Origin: Alphaproteobacteria bacterium
GTDB taxonomy: Bacteria; Pseudomonadota; Alphaproteobacteria; UBA828
Assembly (NCBI GenBank): GCA_965214705.1
Contig: OZ243972.1
Span: 1,280,001 to 1,344,000 of the forward strand
Reading direction: 5' to 3'
DNA: 64,000 bases
In this document: positions 376-21,584 of the stretch, one piece after another
How positions within the stretch are numbered: the stretch's first letter is position 1
How the letters are laid out: each line of letters starts with the position of its first letter
The notes under the pieces: model-generated
Database searches by the model: none
Told to the model about the DNA's origin: nothing
What the model saw: only the letters and a program-made list of their open reading frames with translations
Translations under genes and position numbers: made by a program

Positions 376-380
376 GGCGT

Positions 381-1574
381 TCAGTTGGCGCCCGCCGCCG
401 GGTTGGCGAGGCCGGGCAGGCGCCGCATCTCTTCCACACCCAGCGCGAGCGCGGCAGCGTCGATGGCGCCCCGCCGCTCGTCGGTGCGGTAGCGCTGCCA
501 GTCGAGCATGAGCGAAACCGCCTGGAGCGTGACCAGCTCGCGCAGCAGGTTCTCGGCCGACATCCCCTGGAGGCGCACGAACCAGTCGGGGTCCTCGAAG
601 CGGCGGCTCGCGAGCAGCTCGAGGAGCTCGTAGCGGCTCACCGGGTTCCCGGCATCGCGCCGTGATATCCCGGCAACGGCCGCAGCCCATGCGCCGAGCG
701 CGGCGCCGGGCGCCCTGAGCGAGCGGGCGCCGGCGAAGTAGTCGGCGGCCAGCGCCGTCCTTGCGTCCGCCGCGCGCGCGAGCAGCACGCGGCGGCGCTC
801 GCGCTCGGTATCGGCGGAGGCGAGCGGCGGCGGGTCGTGCACCACGGGCGCGGCGAGATTGCGCGAGAGCTCGATCGCCGAGCGCAGCTCTTCCCCGCTC
901 GCGAAGGTGCGGCGGTCGAACAGCGTGCCGGCCCTGAGATCCGCGCCGTGCATGGCGTGCACGCCCCGGCAGACACTCGTGCCGAAGAGCGCGGGGTCCT
1001 CGCCGGCGCGTGCCGCGTTGCAATAGGTCTGCGTGAGGGTCTCGAAGCGAGCGGCGTCGCCGGCCGCTGCGCCGGGACGGTCGACTACGGCCCGGTCGCC
1101 CGTGATCCGCCCGGTCTCGGTAATGGCGGCGCTCGCCCTGGCGCGGGCGCTTGCCGCGCCCGTCGCGGCGAGTCCCGCGAGTCCGGTGATCCCCTCGCAG
1201 GCGCCCCGGGCGGGGCGGCGCGCCCGCATGGCCTCGGTCTCGGCCGCCTCGCGCGCGATCTGCGCCTGCAGCCTGGTCTGCGAATCGAGCGCGCCGGTGA
1301 TCGCCCTGGCGCTCTGGGCGGTGTAGCCCGAGAGCTGTCCGGTCTGGAGGCGGAGCGCCTCGACGATGGCGCGCTCCATCTCGTCGATCTCTTGCGTGAG
1401 ATCCCGGATGACGCGGCTCGCCTCGCGGCGGTCGTCGTCGGTACGGTCGCAGGCGTGAGCCAATGCCTGTGCCGGCGCCAGGAGCGCAGCCCCCAGGAGC
1501 ACGGTCGCGGCCAGGGCGGCCCCGGCCGACCCGCTGGTGCCGAGGCCCGAGGGTGTGTAACGTCTCGCGCTCAT
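381..1574 (-). CDS. TraW-like type IVB conjugal transfer protein
   Basis: Signal peptide, coiled coil, C-terminal RRFEDPDWFVRLQGMSAENLLRE resembles IncI TraW; ATG 1574 overlaps the upstream stop. Confidence 0.6.
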   Translation of the reverse strand: MSARRYTPSGLGTSGSAGAALAATVLLGAALLAPAQALAHACDRTDDDRREASRVIRDLTQEIDEMERAIVEALRLQTGQLSGYTAQSARAITGALDSQTRLQAQIAREAAETEAMRARRPARGACEGITGLAGLAATGAASARARASAAITETGRITGDRAVVDRPGAAAGDAARFETLTQTYCNAARAGEDPALFGTSVCRGVHAMHGADLRAGTLFDRRTFASGEELRSAIELSRNLAAPVVHDPPPLASADTERERRRVLLARAADARTALAADYFAGARSLRAPGAALGAWAAAVAGISRRDAGNPVSRYELLELLASRRFEDPDWFVRLQGMSAENLLRELVTLQAVSLMLDWQRYRTDERRGAIDAAALALGVEEMRRLPGLANPAAGAN

Positions 1575-2146
1575 CGGCCGCCCTCCACCACGCCCCGGAA
1601 CAGCTCGGCATCCGCGTCGTTCGCCCGAATGTCGTCGAGGACATTGCGCCTCTCCCAGTCGAGGTCGAGGCCGGGAAGTCGGCGGGCCGGCACGGTGTAG
1701 ACCGATGCGTCGAGCCCCCTGCCCAGGTAGCGGCGGTAGGCATCGCGCGCCACCGCGCAGAGGCGCCGCCGCGCCAGATCGAGGATGTCGTCGAGCGCGC
1801 CCGCCGGATCGAACAGCACGTCGAAGGCGCGGTAGTCGAACAGGTCCCGGATGCAGGAGAAGTCGAAGATGGAATCGGGGTTGCGGATGCCCTGGTCGGG
1901 ATGGCGGATAATGGCGAGATCGGCCTCGACACCGGCCTCGGCGCTTTTCGCCAGCGCCTCGGCCACCGCCGGATCGCACGCGTCAGCCTGCGCGTCAGCG
2001 TGGCCGACGGAAGCCTGCCCGCCTGGATCGCTGCTTGCCGCCGCCCCGCCGCCTGGCGGCGCCTGCGCGGAAGACTGCGCCTCCGCCGGCGCCGCCCACA
2101 GAAGCAGAACGAGCGCCGCCACAGGCGCGCGCCTGAACTTACTCAT
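1571..2146 (-). CDS. Exported Cys-containing conjugation-associated hypothetical protein
   Basis: Signal peptide (AxA), CDPAV...FSCI motifs, coupled between ssb and traW-like. Confidence 0.55.
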   Translation of the reverse strand: MSKFRRAPVAALVLLLWAAPAEAQSSAQAPPGGGAAASSDPGGQASVGHADAQADACDPAVAEALAKSAEAGVEADLAIIRHPDQGIRNPDSIFDFSCIRDLFDYRAFDVLFDPAGALDDILDLARRRLCAVARDAYRRYLGRGLDASVYTVPARRLPGLDLDWERRNVLDDIRANDADAELFRGVVEGGR

Positions 2147-2603
2147 CGCCCGCCCCGTCATCGGCCCCCGGGTCCTCGGCCCGAGGGTCCTCGGCCCGAG
2201 GGTCTCCCGCCTCGGGTTCTCCGGCAGGCTCCCCGGCGCCGTCCGCATGGCCCGCGCCGGCCTTCGGCCTGAGCACGTTCACCACGCCCTGCGGGCCGGC
2301 GACGATGACCTCCGTCACCTTCCGCCTGATGCCCTTGCCGTCGTCGTACTCGCGGGTGGCGAGCCGGCCCTCGACCAGCACCGGGGAGCCCTTGCGCACC
2401 ATGTCCTCGACCGGCTTGACCGCGCCGCCGTAGACGACGATGCGGTGCCAGTCCGTCTTCTCGACCGCAGCCCCGCCCTCGCCCTTCCAGCGCCGCGTGG
2501 TGGCAAGCGTGAACCAGGCGGTCCTCTCGTCCTCCGACAGCTTGCGCCCCTCGGGATCGCGGCCCGCATGGCCCAGCAGCGTGACCCTGTTCATGTGCAA
2601 CAT
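2139..2603 (-). CDS. ssb: Single-stranded DNA-binding protein
   Basis: MNRVTLLGHAGRDPE...TDWHRIV...KGSPVLVEGRL OB-fold signature. Confidence 0.93.
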   Translation of the reverse strand: MLHMNRVTLLGHAGRDPEGRKLSEDERTAWFTLATTRRWKGEGGAAVEKTDWHRIVVYGGAVKPVEDMVRKGSPVLVEGRLATREYDDGKGIRRKVTEVIVAGPQGVVNVLRPKAGAGHADGAGEPAGEPEAGDPRAEDPRAEDPGADDGAGDE

Positions 2604-2621
2604 GTCCTGCCTCCTTTCGGC

Positions 2622-5600
2622 TCAGGGTTGAGATCGGGCCGGCCCGTTCGGGACCGGCCGGGGTGAATCCGATGTCTCGTGCGCGGCCGCGCGCGCGACC
2701 TCCTCCGCGAGCCGGTCGAGCACGGCCTCCTCCGACGCCGCACGTCCGGTGTCCGGCGAATCCGGACGCGCGAGCTCGCCCTCGATACGCGGCCGAGCGG
2801 TGCCCTCCGGGAACGCCCGTGCCAGCGCCGCCCGGGCGCGGGCTGGCGGCAACTGGCCGTAGAGCCGTCTCCGCAGCGCGACGTCCGCCGGGCTGGTGGT
2901 GAGCGCCCAGAGCTCGACCGGGCCCGGCGTGTTGACGACGAGCTGCTCGAAGCGCCCGCCCTGGCCGGCGGCGATCAGCAGCGCCGGCGCCCCGTCCCGT
3001 CCGGGTCCGGTGAGCCGGTAGCGGATGACGTCCGAGAGCGTGTCGCTCAGCCCGAAGGCGGCCGCGAGCGCCTCGGCTTCCTTCGCCTTGCCGCCGGAGC
3101 CCAGGATCCAGTATCGGTTGGCGAGCTCGGCGAGCGCGCCGCCGAAGTCGTCGAGCCGCTGCGAGGCGAGTGCGAGGCGCACCCGGAGCTTCCGGGCCTC
3201 GCGCACGTCGCGCTCGACCTGGGCGCGCGCGGCCGGCGCGCCGGCGGTGCGGTGGAACTCGTCGTAGCAGAGCCGCTTCGGCGATTCGCGGATGTCGCGC
3301 AGCCTGGCCGCGTGCCAATCCCGGTAAGGCTCCGGAATCGCGCCGAGCGCGTCCTCGCCGATCCACCAGTGGCGGGTCAGCGCGTGGCGCGCGAGCAGAT
3401 AGAAGGCGGCGGACTGCCGGTCGGCCTCGGCCGAGCCCTGCGGCGCGACCTCGGCGAGATCGATCGCCGCGAGCCGCGCGCCGCCGACGTCGAAGGCGGT
3501 AGGAGAAAACATCACCGGCCAGTCGCCGGAGAGAGCCGTCAGGATGCGGATGAAGGCCTGGGTGACGCTCTCGCCGCCGCTGCCGTATCTCGCATCCCCC
3601 ACCAGCCCCTGAACGGCGGGCTCGCGCGCGCTCGCCAGCAGGTCGGCGAGGACCGGCACCGCGTAGCGCTGCGCCCGCGCGGCCGCATCGATGGCGCCCG
3701 CCTCGAACAGCAAGTCCACCACCTCCCACCAGAGCGGGCTCTCGGGGAGGCGGAGGCCTGACGCCGCGATCGCGGCGTCCACGTCTGCGTCGCGGCCTTC
3801 CGTGTAAGCGTGGGGCTCGGCTCCGGCCACCTTGTCCGAGCGCATCTCGTAGGCGCCCGTCAGCGCCGGCCCCAGCAGCTCCCGCATGCCGTCCGGCACG
3901 CCGGCGGCGGAGCCTCGGGCCGGACACTCGTGCCGCAGACCCGCCGGCGTCACCATCAGGCCGAGCAGGTTCATCAGGAAGGCGCGCTCGGCAGGCAGCG
4001 GCGCGCGGCAGCCGAGCTGCGTGTCGCAGGGGTTGATCGCATGCTCGGGCGTCATGCGGAGCGGGAACCAGCCCGCCTCGTGGCGGCGGCCGGGCGGCAG
4101 GGCCTCGCGGACCAGCGAGATCAGCCCGGAGGACGACGGGCCGATGTCGATCACCGCGGCCAGCGGAAGGCTCGCCTGGCCGCCCTGCAGCGAGAACGCC
4201 AGGCCCAGGGCGTTCATCAACACCGACTTGCCCTGGCCGGGCAGGCCGTAGATCAGCTCGAAGCCATAGTCGCCGCCCTCTGCCGGGGCCAGCGGCAGAG
4301 GCTTGCCGTCGGGCGAGCGGAACAGGTGCGCGGCCTCCGCCCCGGAGGAGAGCCGCGAGAGCGGCGCGGGCCGGCTGACCGGGAAGAGGTGCAGGGCCTC
4401 GGACAGGGGGGCCAGGGCGGGTTCCGCGGTGGCGCCGCAGCAGAAGCCCGGGACCGAAGCGCAATAACTCTCCAGCGGATCGCCCGTGAGCGGCGTGAAC
4501 ACCGCCTCGCCCCAGCCCTCGGCCACCTGCTGCAGGCGGCCGAGGCGGACGGCGAGCGCCGTCTCTCCGTCTTCCGCGCCGACCCAGGTGAGGGTGCCTA
4601 AGCGCAGCCGGACGATGGCATGCGCGTCTTCGCCGAGCGCCGCGAGGTCCCGAAGCGCGTTGCGGGCGAGCAGGCTGTCCGACGACGAGAACGCGAGGAA
4701 GGAAGAGGCGACGCGGGAAACGGTCGTATCCAGGCGGTGCATGCCGCCGCCCTCGATCAGCAGCGAGAGGCGGCAGGGGAGGCCCGCGCCCGCGAGCCCC
4801 GCCATCAGCTCGGAGAACGGCCGGGCCCTGCGCGGCCCCAGCGACATGTCGAGCGCGCCGTAGAGGCGCCCGCCGATGCGGATGCCGCCGCCGGTCCGCT
4901 CGGGCTCGCGCACCAGCAGCTGCGGGGCGAGCGGCGGCGGGAAGGCGCCTGTGTCGGGCGGCTCGGTGAACCGCGCCGGCGCATCGTTGGCGCCGGTCAC
5001 CGGGCGCCAGTCGGATGCAGTCGAGGCCGCGCCGTTCACCATGCGCCGCATGAGGCGAAGCGCGTCCTCCTCCGGCAGCCTCCGGCCTTCGATCCCGGTC
5101 TCCGCGAGCACAGCCACGACCGCGTCGAGCAGCGCCTCGTGACGCGCCCACAGTCCTTCGAGCGCGAGATGAGGGCACTGCGCCTCACCGGCCTCGGGCA
5201 GCCAGTCCCTGAGCTTCCTGCGGAGCCCCTTGCGGTCCCGCTCCAGGCGGTCGCGCGGCAGCACGGAGGGCCGGGTCCAGCAGGCCAGCACCAGGGTCTC
5301 GGCCGCGATCAGCGGGGCCAAACGACGCGCCCGCTCGACCAGCAGGTCGTCGAGGTCCAGCCCGAGCCGGCGGGCCTGTCGCCGCGCGGCCTCGGCATGC
5401 GCCTCGGCGAGACCCCCGGCTTCGTCGGGCGCGCGCTCGAACACCATGTGGAGCGCATGGCCGGGATGGGCGAAGGCGGTGTTGAGCCTGAGCGCGGCGA
5501 CCTCCACGAAGCGGTCGAGCTCTTCCGCGCCCATCATCGAGCGGGTGCCGTCGAGACCGATCAGCGAGACCAGCGAGCCGTCGTGGCACACCAGCACGCC

Positions 5601-5720
5601 GCCGCCGCCTTCGAGGGGAACGGCCGCCTGCGGCGCCAGGAAACTCTCCAGCGGCTTGCGGCGCAGCGTCCAGCTCAGGCGCTGCAGGTCGTCGGCGGCG
5701 GCAGCCAGGGAGAGCGGCAT
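2622..5720 (-). CDS. icmB: IcmB/DotO/TraU VirB4-like ATPase
   Basis: ~1030 aa, Walker A GLPGQGKS, IDIGPSSSGLI, INPCDTQLGCR, YDEFHRT, ELWALTT. Confidence 0.9.
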   Translation of the reverse strand: MPLSLAAAADDLQRLSWTLRRKPLESFLAPQAAVPLEGGGGVLVCHDGSLVSLIGLDGTRSMMGAEELDRFVEVAALRLNTAFAHPGHALHMVFERAPDEAGGLAEAHAEAARRQARRLGLDLDDLLVERARRLAPLIAAETLVLACWTRPSVLPRDRLERDRKGLRRKLRDWLPEAGEAQCPHLALEGLWARHEALLDAVVAVLAETGIEGRRLPEEDALRLMRRMVNGAASTASDWRPVTGANDAPARFTEPPDTGAFPPPLAPQLLVREPERTGGGIRIGGRLYGALDMSLGPRRARPFSELMAGLAGAGLPCRLSLLIEGGGMHRLDTTVSRVASSFLAFSSSDSLLARNALRDLAALGEDAHAIVRLRLGTLTWVGAEDGETALAVRLGRLQQVAEGWGEAVFTPLTGDPLESYCASVPGFCCGATAEPALAPLSEALHLFPVSRPAPLSRLSSGAEAAHLFRSPDGKPLPLAPAEGGDYGFELIYGLPGQGKSVLMNALGLAFSLQGGQASLPLAAVIDIGPSSSGLISLVREALPPGRRHEAGWFPLRMTPEHAINPCDTQLGCRAPLPAERAFLMNLLGLMVTPAGLRHECPARGSAAGVPDGMRELLGPALTGAYEMRSDKVAGAEPHAYTEGRDADVDAAIAASGLRLPESPLWWEVVDLLFEAGAIDAAARAQRYAVPVLADLLASAREPAVQGLVGDARYGSGGESVTQAFIRILTALSGDWPVMFSPTAFDVGGARLAAIDLAEVAPQGSAEADRQSAAFYLLARHALTRHWWIGEDALGAIPEPYRDWHAARLRDIRESPKRLCYDEFHRTAGAPAARAQVERDVREARKLRVRLALASQRLDDFGGALAELANRYWILGSGGKAKEAEALAAAFGLSDTLSDVIRYRLTGPGRDGAPALLIAAGQGGRFEQLVVNTPGPVELWALTTSPADVALRRRLYGQLPPARARAALARAFPEGTARPRIEGELARPDSPDTGRAASEEAVLDRLAEEVARAAAHETSDSPRPVPNGPARSQP

Positions 5721-5728
5721 GGCTCCTC

Positions 5729-6181
5729 CTACAGCCTCGGCTTGAGGACGGTGTGGCTGCCGCCGTCGATGCCGAAGGTGTCGCCCAGCGCATTGATGAC
5801 GGCGGGTGCCGCGATCAGCGCGACGCCGATCAGGATGGCGATCAGGCCCGAACCGATGGTGGTCTGCTGGGGGTGGTCGACGTGGCGCTTCAGCTTCAGC
5901 AGTCCGAAGCCGACGATGGCGGCGCCGATGATGTAGAAGGCGATGGCGATCAGCCCCGGCACGGTCTCCAGGTCGCCCGCCGCCTCCTGGGCCATGTCCC
6001 CGAGGGAGACCGCCAGCGCCGGGCCCGTGCTCCAGACACTGGTGCCGGAGAGCCACGCCGCGCCCATCAGGGCGGCCGCGACGGGGCCGGGGGACGGAAC
6101 CGCCCCCACACTCGGTGAACGGGGACTCTTCAACTCCAGCAGGATGCGCCGGACGTTTCGCGGGAGGGCTGCGAGGCTCAT
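5729..6181 (-). CDS. IcmD/TraR-like small membrane protein
   Basis: Two TM helices flanking KLKRHVDHPQQ; position before icmB. Confidence 0.7.
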   Translation of the reverse strand: MSLAALPRNVRRILLELKSPRSPSVGAVPSPGPVAAALMGAAWLSGTSVWSTGPALAVSLGDMAQEAAGDLETVPGLIAIAFYIIGAAIVGFGLLKLKRHVDHPQQTTIGSGLIAILIGVALIAAPAVINALGDTFGIDGGSHTVLKPRL

Positions 6182-6243
6182 CGGATGTCCTTTCAGCGGA
6201 TGCCCGGCATCCTTCGATGCTTCGCATCGTTCGGTGCTCCGCA

Positions 6244-6783
6244 TCAGTCGATGCTCAGCACTTCGATGCCGAGGCTGGTCTGGACGGCGTCGATCACGGC
6301 GCCGAGGTGCCAGGCGGCGATGCCGCCGGCCATGTGGGCGAAGGCCCGGGCGCCGCCGGCGCCGGGCCTGCCGTCGGCAGCTGCGCGGAGCACGAAGGCG
6401 CCCCGGACGAAGGCGAAGAGCCCGACCAGGGCGACCAGGGCGAACACGGCCGCCAGCAGCGCGTCGTAGTCGGCGCCGCGCCCCCTGTAGCCCAGGCTCG
6501 CGGTGCCGGGCGGGTTCGCCGTGCCGAACAGGCTCTCGCTCGCCGCCCCGAGCCAGGAGGGGAGCGCCGCGAGCACGATGCAGATGACGAAGCTGAGCGC
6601 CGTGCCGCCGGCCGACGGCGCATGGAACTTGTCCTCCGAGGTCTTGAGCAGCCGCAGCAGCCCCTGGGCGAGCGCCATCAACGCGAGCAGGTAGCAGACG
6701 ACCGCGACCAGGATCAGCAGGCCTGGCTCGAGGTCGCGGACCAGCGAGATCATGGCCCGGCCAAGGTCGTTCGACTCAGCCAT
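6244..6783 (-). CDS. IcmC/DotE/TraQ-like membrane protein
   Basis: Four hydrophobic segments, FVRG...AFAHMAGG motif; between icmE and icmD-like. Confidence 0.7.
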   Translation of the reverse strand: MAESNDLGRAMISLVRDLEPGLLILVAVVCYLLALMALAQGLLRLLKTSEDKFHAPSAGGTALSFVICIVLAALPSWLGAASESLFGTANPPGTASLGYRGRGADYDALLAAVFALVALVGLFAFVRGAFVLRAAADGRPGAGGARAFAHMAGGIAAWHLGAVIDAVQTSLGIEVLSID

Positions 6784-7855
6784 CGGGGGAGTCCTTCGTA
6801 CCCGGCGGCGCGGCGAACACCACCACCAGCTCGGTGTCGCGCGCGATACGCACGGTGGGCCGGTCCGGCGCGTTCTCGAGCAGCACGTCGCCGGCGGTGC
6901 GGGCCGCCGTGGCAAGCCCGGCATGGACCGCCTCGCGGGTCGACGACTCCAGACGCTCGTATCGGACGTCGTCCCCGATCACCACGGTCTGCGACGGCCG
7001 GGAGAGGGCGGTCAGGAAGCCCTCGGCGAAGCGCACGGCCGACGGCAGCAGCACGCGCTCGAACCAGTGGCTGTCGACCTCCCCGTCCACCCCGTAGCAG
7101 GCGCAGTCCAGCCCGGCGGCCCAGGCATCGATCGCAAAGCTCCGCCCCCTGTATTCGACGCGGCCGAGCCGCAGCACCAGACGTTCGCCCACCAGCGTGA
7201 ACGCGCCGGAGGCGACGGCTCCCGCAAGCGGCGGCTCCAGTAGCTCCAGCAGCACCGGGCCGGGGTAGTCGGAGTCGACGGCATACATGGTGCGGGCGTA
7301 GAGCCCGGTCCCGGCCGCGATCCGCGGCAGACCCTCGGGCCGGAGAATGGACGCGGCCGCCGGCGGCTCCCGTCCGGCCTCCGGCAGAGGATCCCTGCCC
7401 TCGACGGCAGCGGGATCGCGGGCGGCCGCCGGATAGCGCACACGCACGATCTCGGGCGGCCGCGTCCAGGCCTCGATCAGCACGCCGACGAGACCCTCGG
7501 GCCGCGGGTCGCCGTGGCCCCGGTCCTCCCGGCCGGAAGCGGGAGCACTTTCGGGCCGGCGCCAGGCCTCGTAGGCCGGCTGCGGCGGAGTCGGCGCGCG
7601 GGCCGGCTCTCCTGCGGACCCGGAGGGCGCATCGGCACCGCGCGCCGTCGACGGCCCCTGGAAGACCGGCAGGAAGGTCTCGCCGGCCTCGCGGGCCGCA
7701 TCGAGGCGCTGCCGGTCGCGCTCGTCGAGCGTGTCGCGGTAGGCCGGCGGCACGGCGTCCTCGGGGTCGAGCCTGAGATCGCGGTTGTCGGGGACCTGCG
7801 CCAGGCCGGGACCGGCGAGGCCCGCCACCAGCCATACGGCCAGCAGGACACTCAT
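6776..7855 (-). CDS. icmE: IcmE/DotG/TraO (VirB10-like) core protein
   Basis: AGTGLYA...VDSDYPGPV...GPLAGA...VDSHWFER TrbI-like C-terminal domain. Confidence 0.8.
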   Translation of the reverse strand: MSVLLAVWLVAGLAGPGLAQVPDNRDLRLDPEDAVPPAYRDTLDERDRQRLDAAREAGETFLPVFQGPSTARGADAPSGSAGEPARAPTPPQPAYEAWRRPESAPASGREDRGHGDPRPEGLVGVLIEAWTRPPEIVRVRYPAAARDPAAVEGRDPLPEAGREPPAAASILRPEGLPRIAAGTGLYARTMYAVDSDYPGPVLLELLEPPLAGAVASGAFTLVGERLVLRLGRVEYRGRSFAIDAWAAGLDCACYGVDGEVDSHWFERVLLPSAVRFAEGFLTALSRPSQTVVIGDDVRYERLESSTREAVHAGLATAARTAGDVLLENAPDRPTVRIARDTELVVVFAAPPGTKDSPDG

Positions 7856-7909
7856 ATGTATAACGCCCGACACGCCGCGCCCCCCGCGCCGCGTCCTTGC
7901 CTTCAGTCC

Positions 7910-13523: not shown

Positions 13524-14038
13524 CACCCGTCCTCCCCGGGCGCCGGCACGGCTTCGGGTGCGGCCCAGTCGAGAAGGATCGTTTCGCGGGCAGCGTCCAC
13601 CGTGAGCGTCGCGGCTGTGCCGGCGCGGAGCCCGGCGTCCCGCAGGACGGCGATCAGCGGCTTCCCGTCCGCCTCGACGGCGACGATCAGCGGCCGCGCC
13701 GGCGGGCGCCCGGCCACGAGAAAGCGGTAGCCCGCGCGGCGCGCCAGCGCCGCCGCCAGCGTCTCGAGCGGCCCGGCCCAGTCGAGCGTCACCGGCCGGC
13801 GCAGGGCCTCCGGCACGCTGTCGAGGCCGGGCAGTGCGGCCTCCGGGTCCGGCGCGGGCAGCGTCCGGGCGAGCGAGGCCAGCGCGCGCTCCGCGCGTTC
13901 CGCCGCCTCGACGAGACGCATCTCCGCCGGATCGACCGGCAGGGCCGCCGGCGCGGGCAGGGGCGCTTCCGGCGCCCACATGCAGCCCGCGAGCGCGGCC
14001 GCGCACAACGCCGGCGGCATCGCGGCGAGCAGCCTCAC
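13523..14038 (-). CDS. dotD: DotD/TraH lipoprotein
   Basis: Lipobox LAGC, VTLDWAGPLE...GYRF...LRDAGL. Confidence 0.88.
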   Translation of the reverse strand: MRLLAAMPPALCAAALAGCMWAPEAPLPAPAALPVDPAEMRLVEAAERAERALASLARTLPAPDPEAALPGLDSVPEALRRPVTLDWAGPLETLAAALARRAGYRFLVAGRPPARPLIVAVEADGKPLIAVLRDAGLRAGTAATLTVDAARETILLDWAAPEAVPAPGEDG

Positions 14039-15348
14039 CAGCCGGCTCCGCCGGGGTCGTCCACCACCAGGTGGCGGTTCGCCGGGTAGGCTCGGGCCGA
14101 GAGCGTCCGGCGCGTCGCAGGACCGCTCAGCAGCAGGTCGGCGGCCTCCAGGAAGCCGCCCTCGAAGCGCGCCGCCGCGCCCAGGCCGTAGTCGCGCCCC
14201 GCGTTCCAGACCAGCGTCCAGCCCGCGCCGGCCGCCCAGCTTTCCAGCACGCCGCGCAGCGTCCCGTGCTTCTCCGGATCGACGGTCCAGCTCTCGCCGC
14301 CCGTGTCGGGCTCGCCGGCGGCAGGCTCATCGCCCGCGCCCTCTTGCGTGCCCGTCCTCTCGATGTCGGCACCGGCCGCCGGGCTGCGCTGCGCGAGGTC
14401 CCAGTAGCGGTGGAAGACCACGGCGCCGTCCTCAGGCACGAGTGTCTCCGGCCCCAGGGTCTCCGGCACGAGGGTCTCCCAGGACCAGTCGTAGCCGCTG
14501 AGCGAGGCGACGCGGTCCAGCAGCCCGGACAGCGGTCCCTGCCAGGCGAGGCGAAGCGGCGGGGGATCGTCGAGGACCGCGGCGCCGCCGGCGATGCGGG
14601 CCGGCCGCTCCTCGATCCGCATCTCGATGTCCGCGAGCGAAGACAGACGCCTCACCAGCGCCGGGAAGGGCAGGCTCTCGCCCCCTTCGAACGAGACCTC
14701 CCGTGCCCCGAGGGCGGGAGGCAAGGCCACCGGCACGGGCGCCAGCTCGGTCGCCCGAAGCGGTGCCGGTTCCCCGCTGCCGGGGACGGCCGGCCGGGGA
14801 ACGGCCGTCACGTCCCGCGCGTCCGCGGTCCGAGGGTCACCGGCACGAGTGTCCCCCGCCAGGGCGACCCCGAAGTTCATGCAGAGGAACACCGCGGCGG
14901 CGCCCGCGCACATGCCCGGACCGAGCGGCACCAGGCCCTTGCGGAAGGGCCGGCCGCGCTTCTTCTGCATGCAGTATCGGTGAGCGAGCGCGAAGCCGGA
15001 GCCCAGCAGCATGGACCAGGCGAGGCCCGTGACGCCGAGCAGGAAACCCATAGCCCCCAGCATCATCGCGTCGCCCGGATAGAGCGGCCAGCGCTTGCCG
15101 CACCACTGCGCCAGCGCGATCGGCACCATCGCGGCGGCCACGCCCAGCGACGCCCCGAGCACGGCGCTCACCAGTCGCGGCCAGGCGCCGCCGGACTCGG
15201 TCCCCGCGCTTCCCAGGAAGCGCCACGCGGCGGCCGCGCCGAGCAACGCCAGCACCATGCGCGGATCCACCATGGCGCGGCGCGCGTCATGGACGGCGAT
15301 TGCCGCCATCGCCGCGAGCACGGCGCCTGCGAGTATCGCGTCGGTCAT
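14035..15348 (-). CDS. Prepilin peptidase (A24, PilU-like) fused to TcpQ-like periplasmic domains
   Basis: AVHD and GD aspartates, VPLGP; C-terminal TLRGVLESWAAGAGWTLVW...DY...FEGGF. Confidence 0.75.
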   Translation of the reverse strand: MTDAILAGAVLAAMAAIAVHDARRAMVDPRMVLALLGAAAAWRFLGSAGTESGGAWPRLVSAVLGASLGVAAAMVPIALAQWCGKRWPLYPGDAMMLGAMGFLLGVTGLAWSMLLGSGFALAHRYCMQKKRGRPFRKGLVPLGPGMCAGAAAVFLCMNFGVALAGDTRAGDPRTADARDVTAVPRPAVPGSGEPAPLRATELAPVPVALPPALGAREVSFEGGESLPFPALVRRLSSLADIEMRIEERPARIAGGAAVLDDPPPLRLAWQGPLSGLLDRVASLSGYDWSWETLVPETLGPETLVPEDGAVVFHRYWDLAQRSPAAGADIERTGTQEGAGDEPAAGEPDTGGESWTVDPEKHGTLRGVLESWAAGAGWTLVWNAGRDYGLGAAARFEGGFLEAADLLLSGPATRRTLSARAYPANRHLVVDDPGGAGW

Positions 15349-15740
15349 GGCTGCACCTCTTCCGCCTGCTCGTCATCCGCCTCGGCCGCCTCCCCGAAGG
15401 TCGCGGGTAGCGCCCGGCACCAAGGCTTCACGGCCGGATCGACGCAGAGCTCCGCAGCCAGCACGGCAGGCCCGGCAGCGCCTTCGGCGCGCTCGCGGTT
15501 CCACGCCAGCAGCGCCGCCTGGGCCTGGCCGAGCCCCCGCAACAGGCGGATCTCCGCGCGCAGCCGTTCCAATTCGATGAACGCCCGCTCGCTGTCCCAG
15601 GCTTCGCCGCGACTCACCGAACTCTCGCTCTCGCCCCAGACCGGCAGCGGCCGTCCAACAACCGCCAACGCGGCAATCAGCCCGATCGCCAGAACCCGGC
15701 CCGCGACTCCCTTCACCGGCTTTTTCCGTGCCATGCTCAT
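15345..15740 (-). CDS. Small exported hypothetical protein
   Basis: TGATG-coupled start, signal peptide, LCVDPAVKPWC. Confidence 0.55.
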   Translation of the reverse strand: MSMARKKPVKGVAGRVLAIGLIAALAVVGRPLPVWGESESSVSRGEAWDSERAFIELERLRAEIRLLRGLGQAQAALLAWNRERAEGAAGPAVLAAELCVDPAVKPWCRALPATFGEAAEADDEQAEEVQP

Positions 15741-16906
15741 CACCGGCACCCCTGGCAGCGCCCGACGACGAGCCGGGAGAAGCCTGCGTTGTCGGCGTCG
15801 AGCCGCGTCCCCGCCCGGACCCGCGTGGCCGTGACGGAGGCGGCCGAGACCGAGTCCGCCGTCACCGCGGGCGCGGTCACCGACCCGGCATCGAGGCCGC
15901 CCAGCCGGGCCGTGCCGGCGGCGACGGCGCCTGCCGCCCCGATCGAGCCCGCTTCGACCGGCCCCGCCGCCTCGACCGTTTGAGCGCGCACGGCGCCCGT
16001 GACCGTCATTCCGCCGGCGGTGACCGGACCTTCGATCCGTCCGGCCCCTGCCGCGATCTCCCCGGCCGCCTCCACATTGCCGGCCACCCGCAGCGCCCGG
16101 CCCACCAGCAGGTCGCCGGTCACGGCGAGGTCGCCGCCGGCCTCCAGGTCGGTCTCGACCTCCAGCGCCGCCGCCTCGATGGTGCCGGCGCCCTCGATGG
16201 CGTTTCCCCCCATGTCGAGGTCCGCCTCCATCCGGTTGGCCTCCGCGAAGCCGGGAATGGCCACCCGGTAGAGCGCATCGCCGAAGACGCTCGAGTGGTC
16301 GAAGCGCCGCAGCGTGGCGAGAGCGCCCTCCGCCGGGGCGCCCGCGAAGGCCGCGCGGAAGGCGCCCACGTCGGCGTCCACCGCTGGACCCGAGAGCCGG
16401 GACGGGCCGGCCAGCCCCATCCGGGGACCCGCCGCCTCCAGCAGCGCCGCGGCCGGGCGCACCGTGTCTCCGGCCCCCACCGTCTCCGTGATGAGCAGGT
16501 CGAAGGCGTCGGAGCCGGCCGCGAGCACCAGCACCCGGTAGCCGCGCCCGAGCGCATCGGTCTCGGAGAATTCGGCGGTCAGCGAGCCGTCGGACTTGAG
16601 CGCCGCGAGCGTGAGTTCGGAAGGACCGCCCCGCGCCTGCGCCAGCAGGGCCGGGAAGCGGCTGTGCGCGTACGAAGACGCCGCCTCGGCGAGCACCGCG
16701 AGCTGCATCGCGGCCAGATGCCCGCGTTTCTCCAGCGCCCGGGTCTCGAAGAAGACCGAGGCCCCGAGCACCAGCATGCCCAGCAGCCCCAGCGCCAGCA
16801 GCGCCCCGAAGAGACTCAGTCCGCGACTCGGTCCGCGACCGAGCCGCAGCCGCAGTCTCCGGCTGGAAGCGCGGCGGCTGCGTATTCCTGGCAGGGTGCA
16901 TCTCAT
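15740..16906 (-). CDS. pilV: PilV-like minor pilin/adhesin, copy 2
   Basis: G|LSLFGALL N-terminus, LYRVAIPGFAEANRMEADLDMGGNAI constant-region motif. Confidence 0.75.
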   Translation of the reverse strand: MRCTLPGIRSRRASSRRLRLRLGRGPSRGLSLFGALLALGLLGMLVLGASVFFETRALEKRGHLAAMQLAVLAEAASSYAHSRFPALLAQARGGPSELTLAALKSDGSLTAEFSETDALGRGYRVLVLAAGSDAFDLLITETVGAGDTVRPAAALLEAAGPRMGLAGPSRLSGPAVDADVGAFRAAFAGAPAEGALATLRRFDHSSVFGDALYRVAIPGFAEANRMEADLDMGGNAIEGAGTIEAAALEVETDLEAGGDLAVTGDLLVGRALRVAGNVEAAGEIAAGAGRIEGPVTAGGMTVTGAVRAQTVEAAGPVEAGSIGAAGAVAAGTARLGGLDAGSVTAPAVTADSVSAASVTATRVRAGTRLDADNAGFSRLVVGRCQGCR

Positions 16907-16913
16907 GCCTGCC

Positions 16914-18119
16914 TCACTCACCTTCGCAGCCGGCGCAGGTGCCGACGGTGAGCAGTCCGGAGATCGTCGCATCGGGACCGTAGACGCCGCCCGCCGCCGT
17001 CCGCGACCCGCTCAGCGCCCCGGCGACGCTCAGCGTCTCGCCGGCCAGCCCCCGCGCCGCTGCGGCGCCCTGGACCGAGGCCGCGCCCGCGACAGACAGC
17101 GCCGCGGCGTCGAGTGACCCCGCCGTGTGCAGTGCGCCGGCCTCGAGTTTCCCCGTGGCGTTCACCCGGTCCGCTATGAGCCGTTCTGTGAGCGCCGCGC
17201 CCACCACGATCTCGGCGCTGACCGCAAGTCGCTGCGCCGCGAGCTCGCCGGCCTCGACGGTCTCGGCCGTCACGCCATGCGCCTCGGCTTCGCCTCCGAT
17301 ATCTGCCATGCCGCCGACCGCGATATCCGTCCCGATCTCCGCCGCCTCCGCGCCCACCTCGCCGGCGGCCAGCACGTGCCGCCGCGCCGGGTCGGCCGGG
17401 TCCGCCGCCCCGGGCGGAGCCATGCGGAGCGCCGTTTCCATACGGTTGAGCCAGGGCCGGCCCGGCTGGGCGCGGCGGTAGAGCGCGCGCTCCCGGTAGC
17501 GAAGCCCGAGGTCGGCGGTGACCCAGAGCGCGTCCTCGGCCATCGCGCGGCCCATGGCGGCCTCGATGGCCGGCCGGTGCGCCTCCATGAGAGGGCCGCC
17601 GCCCGGCGCGAGCGCGGCCAGCCCGCCTTCCAGGGCGCCCTCGCGGAGCGCCGTGGGCCGGGATGAAGGCGATGGTTCGAGGACGCCGAAGGCCATCGGC
17701 ACCGGGGAATGCCCCGGTACGCCGCTCCCCATACCGTCTGCGATCACGCCCAGCGTCATCGCGGCATGGCGGCCCGGCCGCTCCCGCAGGTCCGGCGGGG
17801 CAGCGCCCAGCGTGCGCAGCCGGGCCACGGTGAGCAGAACGCCCACCTGCATCTCGAGCGCCGCCTCGAACGCGTCCGCGTGGAGCTGCGTCGCCCGGTG
17901 CGCCGCATGCACCCACGCGCCGAACACCCGGCCGGCGGCGCGGTCCAGCGCCGGCAGACGTTCGGCATCGCGCGCCTCGTAGTGCGCCGCGAGCGCAGCG
18001 CCCGCCAGCGAGGCCAGCAGCAGCACGCCCAGAAGCGCGCCCGCGCCCAGCAGGCGCCTCGGCGCCGGGGTCCGCAGTCCGGTCCGGTTCGCCGGGCCGG
18101 TCATGCCGGGCGCATTCAT
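16914..18119 (-). CDS. PilV-like minor pilin/adhesin, copy 1
   Basis: Hydrophobic N-terminus, LYRRAQPGRPWLNRMETAL motif. Confidence 0.65.
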   Translation of the reverse strand: MNAPGMTGPANRTGLRTPAPRRLLGAGALLGVLLLASLAGAALAAHYEARDAERLPALDRAAGRVFGAWVHAAHRATQLHADAFEAALEMQVGVLLTVARLRTLGAAPPDLRERPGRHAAMTLGVIADGMGSGVPGHSPVPMAFGVLEPSPSSRPTALREGALEGGLAALAPGGGPLMEAHRPAIEAAMGRAMAEDALWVTADLGLRYRERALYRRAQPGRPWLNRMETALRMAPPGAADPADPARRHVLAAGEVGAEAAEIGTDIAVGGMADIGGEAEAHGVTAETVEAGELAAQRLAVSAEIVVGAALTERLIADRVNATGKLEAGALHTAGSLDAAALSVAGAASVQGAAAARGLAGETLSVAGALSGSRTAAGGVYGPDATISGLLTVGTCAGCEGE

Positions 18120-18754
18120 CCGAAGGTGAACCCGATGTCGTTGGCCGCATCGCCGTCGTCGCAGTTGGCGGTCACCTGCGCGTTGGTCACCGGCGAGGCC
18201 AGCGCGGTGCCGTTGACCGTCATCGAGATCAGGCCGGCGCGGGCGCGGCTGCGCCCGGCGAAGGCGTCGCCCAGCGCCGCGCAGATGGCGTCGTCCACGT
18301 CCTCGAAGGTGATCCGGAAGCGGTTGGTGACCCCGCCCGGCCCGCCGACCACCGTCACGGCGCCGCCGAAGGGGTGGCGGATCGCCGCGCTGTTGTTGAC
18401 CAGAACCCGCGCCCCGCCGGGGATGCCGCCGCGCCGGTCGATGGCGGGCACCAGGTCGGCGTTGTTGCCGTAGCTCGGCGCCCCGGCGAAGGCCGCCTCG
18501 ACGTTGGCGCGGAGCTGGCTCAGCAGCGTGAGCGCCGCCGAGCGGTTGGCGGACTCGCGGGCCGCGTTGTAGGTGCCGACGGCGCCGACGATCACCACGG
18601 CGGCCAATCCGAGGCCGAGCAGCACGCCGAACAGGCTGAAGCCGCGCCGATAGCGCCTCGCGGCGAGCCGCCGCATGGTTCTGCGGACGCCCTGGCGCGC
18701 CGCGCCGGAACGGGGGAGCGGGGCTGCGGGGACTGAAGCTTCGGTTCCTCTCAT
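18116..18754 (-). CDS. pilS: Type IVb major pilin PilS-like
   Basis: Long basic leader, G|FSLFGVLL, HPFGGAVTV, FRITF...C...C. Confidence 0.82.
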   Translation of the reverse strand: MRGTEASVPAAPLPRSGAARQGVRRTMRRLAARRYRRGFSLFGVLLGLGLAAVVIVGAVGTYNAARESANRSAALTLLSQLRANVEAAFAGAPSYGNNADLVPAIDRRGGIPGGARVLVNNSAAIRHPFGGAVTVVGGPGGVTNRFRITFEDVDDAICAALGDAFAGRSRARAGLISMTVNGTALASPVTNAQVTANCDDGDAANDIGFTFG

Positions 18755-18774
18755 GTCGTCTCCTGTGGCGTACG

Positions 18775-19830
18775 TCAGGCCCGGCCGGCCTGCTGGAGGA
18801 TCGAGAACATGGCGTCGATGCCGGCGGCGACGGCCAGGGTGACGAGGATCAGCAGCGCCGCGTTGAGCCCGGCGGCGCGGGTCCTGAGCAGGTCCTCCGA
18901 GCGGTCCACCCAGCGCGCCACGAAGCGCGCGAGCTTCGCCTCCCAGCCCGGCACGCCGTCGAGCGCCGCCACCACCGGCACCAGCGCCGGGTCGGGGAAG
19001 CCGTGGCCCGCGAGCGTCATGGCGCGCCCGAGGCCCGCGCCCCGCGCCATGTGGCGCTGGATGGCGCCGATGCGGTGGCGCGCGTAGGGCGCGGCGCGGC
19101 GCCTGAAGTCCTCGAAGGCGCGGTCGTTGAGATCCAGTCCGGCGCCCAGGAACTCCAGCACCACGAACAGGAAGGCCGAGCCCGTGACGGTGCGGTAGAG
19201 CGAGAAGGGCGCGACGCGGTCGAGCGCCGTCCGCCCCGGCCCGGTCCAGTGCACCATGGCGATGCCCACGGGCGCCGCCACGGCGGCGCAGAGCGCCGCG
19301 AACCCCAGCGGCCGCTCGTGGAGCCAGACGGATGCGGTGCGGAACACCGACGCCGCCGGCCCCCAGCGCTCGGGCGGCACCACGCCCTCCAGCACCGGCA
19401 CGAACCAGCCGCCCGCCGCCCACAGCATGGTGACGACGGCGACGCCCAGCAGCAGCGGCATGGCGAGGGCCTTCCTCACCGCCGCCATCTGGCGCTCGCG
19501 CAGCTCCGCCACCCGCGCGGCGGCGGCGAAGAGCCGGCCGGCGTCCACCCTGCCGTAGGCCTCGAATATCATCGCCTCGGCCGAGGGCACCGAGGCCGCC
19601 ATGGCCTCTCCGAAGCGCCCCTCCGGCAGCGCCCGGCGCCAGGACGCGATCAGGCGGGCGCGCGCGCCCCGCCCGGCGAGGGCCTGGCCGGTGACGTCGA
19701 GCGCGCGCTCCAGCTCGAAGCCGGCGTCCAGCAGATCGGCCACCGTCCGGAAGCAGTCGACGCGCGCCTTGCGCCCCATGACCAGCGCGGCATGGAGGCG
19801 GCGCAGAGCGGTGACGAACCGGGCGATCAT
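18775..19830 (-). CDS. pilR: PilR/GspF-family platform protein
   Basis: Three TM regions, FSLYR, GHGFPD motif. Confidence 0.82.
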   Translation of the reverse strand: MIARFVTALRRLHAALVMGRKARVDCFRTVADLLDAGFELERALDVTGQALAGRGARARLIASWRRALPEGRFGEAMAASVPSAEAMIFEAYGRVDAGRLFAAAARVAELRERQMAAVRKALAMPLLLGVAVVTMLWAAGGWFVPVLEGVVPPERWGPAASVFRTASVWLHERPLGFAALCAAVAAPVGIAMVHWTGPGRTALDRVAPFSLYRTVTGSAFLFVVLEFLGAGLDLNDRAFEDFRRRAAPYARHRIGAIQRHMARGAGLGRAMTLAGHGFPDPALVPVVAALDGVPGWEAKLARFVARWVDRSEDLLRTRAAGLNAALLILVTLAVAAGIDAMFSILQQAGRA

Positions 19831-21584
19831 GCGGACTCTCCGGCTTCTTCGGGCACCGGGTCGGCCTGGGCCTCGTGCTCCCCGGCGCCGCCCTTGAGCA
19901 GCGCGTCGAAGGGGTCGACGGCGCCCTGCCTCACCAGGGCGCGGATGCGCACTCCGATCGGGACGCCGCCCAGCTCGCTCCGCCACCAGGCCCACGCCCC
20001 GAGCGGGTCGCCCTTGCGCACGAAGCGCAGGTAGCCCGCGTCGGGGCGGATGGTCTCGCAGATCGCGGTCTGGCCGAGATAGCCGTTCCAGGCCCGGGCC
20101 GAGACCTCGCCGCCGTCCGCGCGCCGGCACTCGGGGCAGCCCTCGGCATTCCTGAAGCGCAATCCCTCGAGCCCGCCGAGGCGGGCAGCCAGCCCCTCGG
20201 GCACGGCGCGGCCGCCCGCCGGACGGTCCAGCGCGCAGGCGCCGCAGAGCCGCGGCAGCAGGGTCTGCTTCATCAGCAGCGCCACGTTGCCGGGCTTCGC
20301 CACCTCGGCCGCGCCCACCCCCATGTCGATCAGCCGGAAGGGGATGGCGTTGGCGTTGTGGACATGGATGGTGGTCCAGATCTGGTGCCCGGTGTCGACG
20401 CACTGCAGCACCTGCCGGGCGGCGTCGGCGTCGCGGATCTCGGAGACCATGCCCGACGCCGGATGCACCCGGCAGAAGTGCATCAGCGCCTGGCTGAAGT
20501 GCCCGGCGCGGGTCTCGCCGGCGCCGGCCGTCGGCACCGCGATCTGCAGCGCGCCGGGAATGCGGTACTCGACCGGGTCCTCCAGGGTGACCAGGTTGAG
20601 CTGGCCCGCCATCTCGGCCATCTGCAGCGCGAGGTTGACGGCGAGCGTGGTGGACTTGCCGTCGCCGGCGCGGCCGCCGATGAAGACACCGCCCTGCATC
20701 GCCATGCGGATCTCGGCGAAGAGCGCGGCCTCTTTCGCCGAGAAGCCGAGGCCCTCGAGCGTCGTGCCGGGGTCCAGGCGGTCCGTGTAGAAGAGGCGGG
20801 CGAAGAGATGGTCGGCGTCGGGGTCGTGGGGTCCGCGCTCGCAGCGCAGCGCCGAGATGCCGCCCGGCAGCGGCACCGGGCCGCCGGCGCGGATGGAGAA
20901 GCCCTGAAAGGAGGCGCGGCGGTAGCTGGTCTGGGACGAGCCCTCGTCCTTGCAGTGGAAGAGGAAGCCCATCGCCTGGCGGCCTTCCTCGGCGGTGAGC
21001 GGCGCACTCAGCGGCAGCTTGCGGTCGTTGACGATGGCGAAGACCCTGCAGGCGTCGCGGCCCTGCTCGAAGACCACGTCGCTCGCCTTCGCGGCTGCGG
21101 CGTCGGCGAGGAGCCGGCGCAGGCGGTCGGCCGCTCCGCCGCCGGCGGCCGTGTTCTCGCCTTCCTGCGCGCGCCAGAGCGCGGCGATCTCCTCCAGCGC
21201 CGCGCTCTCCTCGGCGAGCGCCGGCGGGATCGCGCCGGACTCGCGCAGCGCCACCAGGTCGAGGCGCAGCCGGTCGTCGGCCTCGTAGCCCTCGGCGATC
21301 AGGCAGCGCCCGTCGGTGAACACCGCACAGAGCCGCCGGAAGCGGGCATCCATCGCGCTGCTGCGGATCGGCAGGTCGGAGGCCCGAGGGTCTCCGGCAC
21401 GACTGTCCGCGGCACGAGTGTCTCCGGCACGAGGGTCCGTTCTCGGCGCCGGACCCGTCAGCCCGGCCAGCGCCGGCCCGCCCCGGCCCCCGCCGAGCCG
21501 GAACATCGCGGCCGCGGCCTTCGAACGCAGGCGCGTGCGCATGCGGTTGCACCGGAGGCCGAGCCAACGGCCGAGCCGCCTCAC
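19827..21584 (-). CDS. pilQ: PilQ/GspE-family assembly ATPase
   Basis: Walker A variant GRAGDGKST, TLEDPVEY, EIRD, TGH...TTIH, two CxxC. Confidence 0.88.
   Translation of the reverse strand: MRRLGRWLGLRCNRMRTRLRSKAAAAMFRLGGGRGGPALAGLTGPAPRTDPRAGDTRAADSRAGDPRASDLPIRSSAMDARFRRLCAVFTDGRCLIAEGYEADDRLRLDLVALRESGAIPPALAEESAALEEIAALWRAQEGENTAAGGGAADRLRRLLADAAAAKASDVVFEQGRDACRVFAIVNDRKLPLSAPLTAEEGRQAMGFLFHCKDEGSSQTSYRRASFQGFSIRAGGPVPLPGGISALRCERGPHDPDADHLFARLFYTDRLDPGTTLEGLGFSAKEAALFAEIRMAMQGGVFIGGRAGDGKSTTLAVNLALQMAEMAGQLNLVTLEDPVEYRIPGALQIAVPTAGAGETRAGHFSQALMHFCRVHPASGMVSEIRDADAARQVLQCVDTGHQIWTTIHVHNANAIPFRLIDMGVGAAEVAKPGNVALLMKQTLLPRLCGACALDRPAGGRAVPEGLAARLGGLEGLRFRNAEGCPECRRADGGEVSARAWNGYLGQTAICETIRPDAGYLRFVRKGDPLGAWAWWRSELGGVPIGVRIRALVRQGAVDPFDALLKGGAGEHEAQADPVPEEAGESA

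Follow-up and report, generated by a model that had tools for sequence, protein, structure and literature searches.

A dispersed 15-base coding repeat in the conjugative transfer modules of one alphaproteobacterial genus

The stretch analysed here, called the window throughout, comprises 64,000 bases (C1:1280001-1344000, C1 being contig OZ243972.1) of assembly GCA_965214705.1, an Alphaproteobacteria genome of 7.92 Mb and 67% G+C in three contigs. The conjugative transfer genes at its start belong to an I-type element, E1, and carry many copies of a 15-base quasi-palindromic unit, GAGACMCTCGKGCCG. We found that this unit is real, DNA-level and frame-neutral, and that it has become established again and again in transfer modules of the conjugative elements of one genus. 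It is best read as a dispersed coding minisatellite family of these modules. An earlier note, made from the letters of the window alone, had listed 17 loci and proposed a frame-neutral micro-element at the DNA level and not a protein repeat. This was borne out: the unit is read in at least five frames and in both orientations, and distant orthologues show clean gaps of 5n residues where it stands.

GAGACMCTCGKGCCG has ten exact matches in the window, against 0.01 expected (100 shuffles). With up to two mismatches it has 36, against 2.3 expected and 7 in the richest shuffle; these are divided between the plus (16) and minus (20) strands, as the note's mention of both orientations implied. Thirty-four of them fall within 970-21439, and the two in 28-64 kb are at chance level, in agreement with the absence of good copies claimed for 28-63 kb. 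At this threshold 16 of the 17 listed loci were recovered, the remaining one, 1544, being a degenerate three-mismatch copy (1543-1557). Two extra matches, at 5286 and 7667, sit in peptide stretches common to all relatives, including those that lack the motif, and were therefore taken as chance look-alikes. The tandem arrays have a period of 15 (Tandem Repeats Finder), with one exception of period 33 at 11354-11484.

A whole-genome scan against a G+C-matched background showed that this density is not shared by the rest of the genome. Counted with up to two mismatches, the motif reaches 10.0 copies per 10 kb in E1, 6.0 in the close I-type paralogue E2 (C1:3.44-3.48 Mb) and 7.1, 5.6 and 5.0 in the modules F1, F2 and F3, which are F-type by their Pfam matches (TraC, TraH, TraU, TraN, TraG, TraW, a TrwB-type coupling protein and a TrwC relaxase). 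Two more distant I-type paralogues, E3 and E4 (71-73% G+C; 50-65% protein identity to E1), have 0.5 and 0.31, other windows with at least 72% G+C have 0.53, and the remainder of the genome has 0.16-0.25, the density of a reversed control pattern. In the five enriched modules, two I-type and three F-type, this control gives 0-0.36 per 10 kb. The motif is 20-60 times as dense there as in G+C-matched homologous DNA, E3 and E4 being at chance level, and it is not a by-product of G+C content. The chromosome-wide over-representation that characterises DNA uptake sequences was not found (0.16-0.25 against 5-10 per 10 kb in the modules).

Beyond this genome, the exact motif was found in 13 out of 20 other genomes of the genus, always clustered over 10-30 kb. 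It was found in none of four other genera of the family and as one single match in 16 more distant genomes, the reversed control giving one match overall. Searches with an exact dimer retrieved seven loci in species-representative genomes, all of them metagenome-assembled genomes titled Rhodospirillales or Alphaproteobacteria, and 21 metagenome loci, with no matches in viral contigs. Of thirty open reading frames (ORFs) taken from these 28 loci, half (15) matched a Pfam family, in 13 cases that of an I- or F-type conjugation or pilus gene (TcpQ, 8; DotI, 2; coupling protein, TraW_N and TraF, 1 each). The other two are a hydantoinase/oxoprolinase gene (metagenome locus L057, 601-630, 67% G+C) and a zf-HC2/TPR gene (L066), so the unit is not strictly limited to conjugation genes.

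An artefact, either chance matches in G+C-rich DNA or mis-assembled repeats, might be suspected in a block of 74% G+C where short-read contigs break inside the arrays. The exact counts and the reversed control refute this reading, the G+C-matched paralogues are at chance level, and arrays occur in 13 other assemblies and, exactly, in Logan contigs; we put its probability at virtually nil. The short-read contigs, from three runs of one study, possibly that of the source sample, are identical to the window over 7303-7667, 9540-10391 and 14398-15088. They reproduce without difference the arrays at 7328/7490, 9615-9870 and 14431-14855, which gives these copies the read support that the earlier note had wanted. 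A second contig form skips 9615-9683, agreeing with the empty site of E2 type. Only this study's contigs hold the stretch well, and no RNA run is listed as holding it.

The frame in which each copy is read was set by flanking homology. In E1 the unit is read as ETLGP/ETLVP (8939, 9828 and 14434), DPRAG/DTRAG (2162, 9620, 14826 and 21380), RPEGL/RHECP (3909, 7328, 7490 and 10452), GTSVS/GTSVP (970, 8586 and 10860) and ARGSP (11354), and the two arrays of the TcpQ-like gene are read in different frames. Five of the six frames named in the earlier note therefore stood. The sixth (xPSGx) is plausible at a single candidate, 1543-1557, where the related element G003a shows RPSGP at the corresponding site; it otherwise turns up only in wrong-frame ORF extensions. 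A matching set of pentapeptides is seen in the F-type elements, with noisy frame calls based on third-position G+C. Every verified copy falls inside a coding frame or where gene ends overlap. The copies occupy linkers, tails and the regions that follow signal peptides, and they avoid Pfam domain matches except for a loop of DotH. The OB domain of the single-stranded DNA-binding protein (SSB), for instance, stops at residue 101, ahead of a tail array that is missing in five out of seven relatives; the 7328 unit is N-terminal to the TrbI domain (residues 230-354), and the T2SSE domain of the PilQ-type ATPase begins at residue 207.

We compared 13 related I-type elements, namely E1-E4 and nine from other genomes of the genus, using protein-guided codon alignments. 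The motif-bearing elements of the clade from other genomes have 75-86% nucleotide identity to E1, and the motif-free E3/E4-like elements have 66-72%. At more than 15 sites relatives show clean gaps of 5n residues opposite the arrays, and the inserted peptides are not conserved in distant orthologues; insertion in frame and absence from orthologues are thus both observed. Measured against empty orthologous sites, the insertions are 15 bases long at 970, 7328 and 8586, 30 at 3909, and 45 at 14431, 9615 and 9823. The TcpQ-like protein has 3, 3, about 5, 2, 7, 7 and 5 units in seven elements and none in six, the filled site reading W-[ETLVP]n-(E/D)G and the empty one W-(E/A)-(D/G)G. The DotH loop holds one unit in E1, two in E2, three in G020, one in G008 and none in seven elements, the row for G001 ending ahead of this site. 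Copy number therefore varies between relatives in the manner of a coding variable-number tandem repeat (VNTR), with 0-7 units in the TcpQ-like, 0-3 in the DotH and 0-5 in the DsbG-like protein.

At least eight sites are filled in one element only, with at least five other elements, outgroups included, uninterrupted there. Specific to E1 are ADTRA in DotA/TraY, ETLGP at the end of DotI and GTSVC at 970 in the TraW-like gene, the last with an empty, uninterrupted site in five clade members and two outgroup elements. Single-element sites elsewhere include RTLGPETLGP in G001 and several in G008, G010 and G003a. Gains were inferred from such singleton sites with many empty orthologues, and not from a rooted element tree. 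At 3909-3938 E4 is contiguous across the site (tblastx), nine elements are empty and G008 has one unit. The N-terminus of a small gene (about 11100-11500) has ARGSP-type units in E1, G003a and G020, and ETLVP-type units, that is, the opposite orientation, in G008. At 11354-11486 the 15-mer was inserted into another repeat, an 18-base hairpin unit, and the 33-base composite was then amplified to four; E2 has neither repeat there.

The array at 8939-8980 removes the DotI stop codon, fusing the frame to DotH. A 16-base variant unit shifts the frame so that the DotI/IcmL-like gene reads into the DotH/IcmK signal peptide (MRMQTL...; 8821-9000, minus strand). The fusion is one ORF of 778 residues, and all 11 relatives end DotI a few codons past LIAGK.

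Nine sites were read codon by codon. At each, the inserted block fits (GACMCTCGKGCCGGA)n set beside a GA or GAC of the empty site, and microhomology of 2-3 nt flanks the blocks. Unit positions 1-2 are GA in 12 of the 15 internal units of the window, against 5 of the 16 first units (hand count), and are the least conserved of the fixed positions (0.74 and 0.68, all others being at least 0.85). To these junctions we would apply the explanation that we favour, and to which we give about an even chance: that the unit is a non-autonomous coding micro-repeat whose spread is due to ectopic conversion or to template switching primed by microhomology, with the tolerance of the proteins as the filter. 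We infer both this copying mechanism and the lack of a function for the element. A growing strand or repair intermediate would detach from its template where 2-3 nt match (GA or GAC in most cases), continue for at least one whole unit on an existing array at another place in the element, or in an element resident in the same cell, and rejoin the original template through that short match. Arrays so seeded would grow and shrink by slippage, with ectopic conversion keeping them alike. The unit is 15 bases long, is open in six frames and encodes pentapeptides of Pro, Gly, Ser, Thr and charged residues, and insertions would thus survive wherever five flexible residues are tolerated; such survival is in part directly visible in the alignments and in part presumed.

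Whole units could also be delivered by an enzyme. An HUH relaxase-like nuclease-ligase might cut a nic-like site in each unit and move 15-base pieces by a kind of 'peel and paste', by analogy with the proposed mobilisation of repetitive extragenic palindromic (REP) elements by their tyrosine transposases. The exclusive presence of whole units, their preferred phase and the short GA/GAC repeat at the nine junctions would fit, as would the confinement of the motif to DNA that passes through a single-stranded transfer intermediate and the more than 30 TrwC homologues of this genome; part of the unit may resemble the core of MOBF nic sites. However, whole units do not by themselves demand an enzyme, since exit and re-entry through one short match, as in template switching, also yield them. 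E3 and E4 adjoin TrwC genes of equal similarity (about 42%) and are motif-free, the relaxase of E1 and E2 was not identified by Pfam or NCBIfam scans, the cargo of the same element is motif-free though it is transferred too, and array boundaries are not at one fixed phase. We consider enzymatic movement decidedly improbable.

The earlier note had seen that the variable positions of the unit mostly covary. A comparison across 16 element regions, covering 230 copies that mismatch the 13 fixed positions no more than once, extends this to all four Watson-Crick pairs. Positions 6 and 11 are A-T in 128 copies, C-G in 62, G-C in 9 and T-A in 4, and are non-complementary in 27. By our own arithmetic they are complementary in 88% (203/230), against about 47% expected from column frequencies, a contrast that is not a probability because the copies are related by descent; four kinds of pair are nonetheless hard to get by chance. 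In F3 a variant that is among the commonest 12-mers turns the core into a perfect 8-base palindrome. Where neighbouring units are mixed, positions 6 and 11 are complementary within units in 83 out of 114 cases and between units in 13 out of 57, so pairing between neighbouring units was rejected. On the favoured explanation, the complementarity in the core C-M-C-T-C-G-K-G would probably be kept by palindrome-templated copying, one arm being corrected from the other.

A hairpin in single-stranded DNA, which had been among the suggested functions, was dropped. The 15-mer arrays fold no better than dinucleotide shuffles (z 0.27, 1.78, 0.33, 2.05 and -0.14), and one strong fold, at 8580-8606 (z -4.98), stems from a palindrome in the flanks.

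The dyad could instead be a cis-acting DNA signal kept by selection, either as the binding site of a genus-specific factor encoded by the host or through a role on the transferred strand, such as priming, protection or defence evasion, with copies gathered up to the limit of protein tolerance as uptake sequences are. We regard this as possible, though on the unlikely side. It would account for a distribution limited to conjugative modules, these being of the unrelated types I and F, with absence from the chromosome and from G+C-matched paralogues, for the presence in 13 of the 20 other genomes of the genus and in none of the four other genera, and for the predominance of conjugation and pilus genes at the dimer loci (13/15). 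It would also fit a consensus kept between elements of 75% identity, the complementarity of positions 6 and 11 in all four pairs, and the different palindromic repeat that a sister clade carries in like places, with compensatory stems, which could be an analogous signal. Strict confinement to two unrelated module types and a maintained complementary core keep both this and the enzymatic reading alive. Against a signal, the two orientations are balanced, which makes a polar signal on the transferred strand unlikely. Copies are absent from the promoter-proximal end and from intergenic DNA, some orthologous arrays decay (such as the E2 array opposite 10860), an unbiased comparison gives no excess conservation, the arrays are poor hairpins, and a symmetric binding protein alone does not explain the rarity of mixed half-sites.

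Nor did a candidate reader emerge among the genes of the elements. No protein is shared only by motif carriers: E1, taken as 82 kb including the window, has just SSB and TrwC in common with the F-type regions, and the motif-free E3 and E4 have both as well. This leaves no candidate element-encoded reader, and the cognate binder that an operator, iteron or centromere would have was not found. Nor is the operator or spreading site that the earlier note had considered supported by the placement of the copies, none of which lies between the transfer block and the upstream regulator gene.

Selection at the protein level for flexible linkers is another possibility, in which DNA copying supplies a cassette open in all frames, a handy raw material, and fixation is adaptive. 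The placement of copies in linkers, tails and post-signal regions, the varying copy number at the same sites (0-7 in the TcpQ-like protein) and the absence of stops from all six frames are what this predicts. Yet each frame yields an entirely different peptide, SSB and the ATPase, which are cytoplasmic, are hit just as periplasmic proteins are, and the complementarity of positions 6 and 11 is left unexplained. Moreover, in the ETLGP frame the variable position 11 swaps Gly and Val, whereas third-codon positions 3, 9, 12 and 15 are conserved at 0.90-0.96, a pattern that is the reverse of protein-level constraint, measured on copies recognised by their likeness to the consensus. We consider linker selection improbable.

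Several observations weigh against the favoured explanation by template switching or conversion. Across 7.7 Mb of chromosome, and likewise in two G+C-matched I-type paralogues of the same cell, the motif is no commoner than chance predicts, and a purely host-driven mutational process should have seeded E3 and E4 too. F1 and F2 differ by no 15n-base insertion or deletion over about 25 kb at identities of 94.7%, 99.96% and 95.2%, so the arrays are not hypervariable on that scale. The orthologous arrays of E1 and E2 differ at about 27 of 180 bases (hand count), compared with 23-24% for the whole elements, and elements of only 75-86% identity have the same two predominant unit types, with A/T and C/G at positions 6/11; together these require ongoing homogenisation or constraint. 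When the array codons of E1 were compared with aligned columns in ten relatives, no excess identity was found (0.73/0.75/0.63 by codon position in array columns, against 0.84/0.86/0.66 in others), in a test diluted by columns where relatives have no array. The boundary phases of 135 arrays are non-uniform without being sharp at one phase, and are too diffuse to prove a fixed cut site, as seen by a method anchored on full units and biased by how arrays were seeded. Finally, arms of three bases around a two-base centre are very short for palindrome-templated correction.

F1 (C1:1.953-1.979 Mb) and F2 (C1:3.020-3.049 Mb) are inverted mosaic copies, with a 7963-base stretch of 99.96% identity between stretches of 94.7% and 95.2%, a sequence pattern that suggests recent conversion between them. 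F2 carries an additional IS-like insertion with DruA/DDE domains.

The other repeat met in the composite array is a second family, with an 18-base unit and the core CAGGGGAACKCCCTGG. It has 20 copies in E4 (C3:340521-367716), ten in E3 (C1:1630119-1649774) and seven in E1 (window 11370-11484, 22850 and 26884-26935), in both orientations and either single or with a period of 18. Stem variants change on both sides jointly (CGGGGG..CCCCGG, CAAGGG..CCTTGG and CAGCGG..CGCTGG), and its arrays fold above shuffles (z -3.05 and -1.99). This hairpin repeat of the sister E3/E4 clade behaves like the 15-mer. The two might form a new class of cis elements that are embedded in coding sequence and peculiar to conjugative DNA, an idea that we hold tentatively and think unlikely. 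In one version the unit may be a single-stranded piece moved by the transfer machinery, a gene-less 15-base 'transposon' mobilised by a relaxase-type enzyme; in the other, elements may accumulate it owing to the action of a genus-specific host factor on it while they transfer or establish themselves.

The 15-mer differs in a defining feature from each of the repeat families that it recalls. Rickettsia palindromic elements (RPEs) are dispersed palindromes inserted in frame in unrelated genes and tolerated as extra peptide; they are about 100-150 bases long, form long hairpins, are not known to amplify in tandem and are spread across the chromosome. Like them, the 15-mer is a DNA-level phenomenon inserted in frame into unrelated protein-coding genes. 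Unlike them, it has a 15-base unit, is tandem, folds poorly (z -0.14 to +2.05) and is confined to conjugative modules. REP elements and bacterial interspersed mosaic elements (BIMEs) are outlined in one source as a short palindromic family with many copies and RAYT transposases (PMC3733652). The many copies, both orientations, clusters and complementary changes that preserve the dyad are shared with the 15-mer. REPs are, however, 20-40 bases long, extragenic and chromosome-wide, with a GTAG or CGTC end tag, whereas the 15-mer is intragenic, on mobile elements, and its consensus shows neither tag.

Coding minisatellites, or in-frame VNTRs, of bacterial surface proteins have in common with the 15-mer a tandem unit that is a multiple of three and a copy number that differs between relatives. 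An ordinary VNTR occupies one locus in one frame; the 15-mer has about 17 loci, at least five frames, both orientations and new loci in each lineage. Uptake sequences (USS/DUS) fill chromosomes and are depleted in foreign elements. They too are short motifs over-represented through a DNA-level bias, intragenic and in several frames where the peptide is tolerated, but the 15-mer is enriched in conjugative elements, at chance level on the chromosome and arranged in tandem arrays. A PARCEL is a 25-residue amphipathic protein motif according to the account in PMC2996958. As far as that account goes, PARCELs resemble the 15-mer as tandem coding repeats with dyad symmetry that are linked to mobile elements and spread horizontally, and differ from it in being detectable by protein hidden Markov models and sitting in dedicated ORFs, whereas the 15-mer has a five-residue unit, peptides that change with the frame and ordinary transfer genes as hosts. 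Operators, iterons and parS-type sites are likewise short dyad-symmetric units, sometimes tandem or intragenic. Such sites are few, mark promoters, origins or centromeres and are matched by a cognate protein that the element itself encodes, in contrast to the 36 copies here, none of which is at the regulatory end of the block and for which no shared element-encoded candidate exists. In the literature that we covered, from which subscription journals are missing, we found neither this motif nor any repeats of the kind described within conjugation genes.

Most accounts of short dispersed repeats place them between genes or chromosome-wide. Here one unit marks the transfer modules of two unrelated conjugation types in a single genus and lies within their genes, in the majority of reading frames. 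If templated copying is the cause, the arrays would be a natural record of microhomology-primed template switching in bacteria and would show mobile elements gaining and varying protein linkers, the DotI-DotH gene fusion included. Should the unit prove to be a signal, conjugation would have a new cis element; and if the wider class of cis elements exists, conjugative elements would have their own analogue of uptake sequences or REPs, lodged in the linkers of transfer proteins. In practical use, the motif offers a sharp marker by which these elements can be recognised and their exchanges with one another followed. For annotators it is also a warning, since at very high G+C content such arrays give rise to long spurious ORFs and make frames ambiguous.

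Table 1. Position, strand and coding context of the transfer block and of the repeat copies in the window.
Position	Strand	Feature	Read as	Basis or remark
1..28610	-	Host block: mating-pair-formation type I (MPF-I; IncI/Dot-Icm-type) transfer and thin-pilus genes		Pfam, NCBIfam, composition
970..984	+	Single unit, one mismatch, TraW-like gene	GTSVC	Motif scan, codon alignment
1543..1557	-	Degenerate unit, three mismatches, presumed N-terminus of TraW-like gene	TPSGL	Alignment; start codon presumed
2162..2206	-	About 3 units, C-terminal tail of element SSB	DPRAE DPRAE	
3909..3938	+	30-base insertion, 2 units, irregular junction, 1201-residue gene of unknown family	RHECPARGS	
6033..6047	+	Single unit, two mismatches, near 5' end of 1201-residue gene		Coding status uncertain
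7328..7342	+	Single unit, TrbI/TraO-like gene	RPEGL	Shared only with G003a
7490..7504	+	Single exact unit, TrbI/TraO-like gene	RPEGL	Older site, common to several clade members
8586..8600	+	Single unit, loop of DotH/IcmK-like protein	SGTSV	
8939..8980	-	About 2.6 units (one 16 bases long), C-terminus of DotI/IcmL-like gene		
9620..9664	-	3 units directly ahead of DsbG-like stop codon	GDTRAGEPRPRDPRV	E2, E3 and E4 empty
9828..9872	-	3 units within DsbG-like gene	RTLGPETFVPETLGP	G010 has 5 units; 10 elements empty
10452..10507	+	3.7 units near N-terminus of DsbG-like gene	RPEGL x3-4	
10860..10910	+	3.3 units upstream of TcpQ-type domain, small gene	SGTSV x3	
11354..11486	+	Four 33-base composite units	PGSSPARGSPV	
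14434..14478	-	3 units, TcpQ-like pilus protein	ETLVP ETLGP ETLVP	Relatives have 0-7 units
14826..14855	-	2 units, TcpQ-like gene again, different frame	GDTRAGDPRT	
21380..21439	-	4 units (one degenerate), N-terminal to ATPase domain of PilQ-type ATPase		
26893..26936	-	2.4 copies of second repeat family, 18-base hairpin unit, CAGGGGAACKCCCTGG core		Fold z -3.05

The block that hosts the arrays makes up the initial 28.6 kb of the window, has 74% G+C and carries all its recognised transfer genes on the minus strand. Pfam and NCBIfam scans identified DotA/TraY (truncated by the window start), TraW-like, TraQ-like, SSB, TrbI/TraO-like, DotH/IcmK, DotI/IcmL and DsbG-like genes, two T2SSE-type ATPases and a T4SS_TraI lipoprotein, and on the pilus side TcpQ-type proteins, PilV (shufflon N-terminus), PilS and a secretin. 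The gene set expected of an MPF-I system is therefore present (DotA/TraY, DotH/IcmK, DotI/IcmL, TraI-type lipoprotein, TraQ, TraW, PilS/PilV/PilQ and secretin). The DotA_TraY match scores 255.9 bits against a cut-off of 100, and those of TraQ, TraW and TrbI fall under their curated cut-offs. At this G+C content positions 1-28600 are full of stop-free false ORFs (85 ORFs of at least 150 residues overlapping 30 kb), and gene calls there need frames anchored by homology. Paralogues also show cross-frame similarity in this part of the window. The genome as a whole is rich in conjugative elements, with four paralogous I-type modules, at least three F-type ones and more than 30 TrwC-type relaxase genes or fragments.

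The part of the window past 28.6 kb contains regulators, defence-like genes, IS elements, an imuB-dnaE2 pair and a TrwC relaxase. The defence-like cargo adjoins the transfer block (29865-43190) and includes a DUF4143 ATPase, a DUF7662 protein, a 1319-residue SNF2/ResIII helicase with an NOV_C domain and a 1153-residue HEPN(Swt1)-DUF499 protein. The error-prone polymerase pair, a DnaE2-type Pol III alpha and an ImuB-like Y-family protein, lies within 51139-57681. Rfam gave no match within the repeat region; its sole match, a group II intron domain (RF02003, 80 bits) at 51139-51283, abuts the 3' end of the polymerase pair. Two 17-base tandem repeats are unrelated to the families described above, one of 4.3 copies at 6199-6269, where the 1201-residue gene meets the TraQ-like gene, and one of three perfect copies at 38571-38621.

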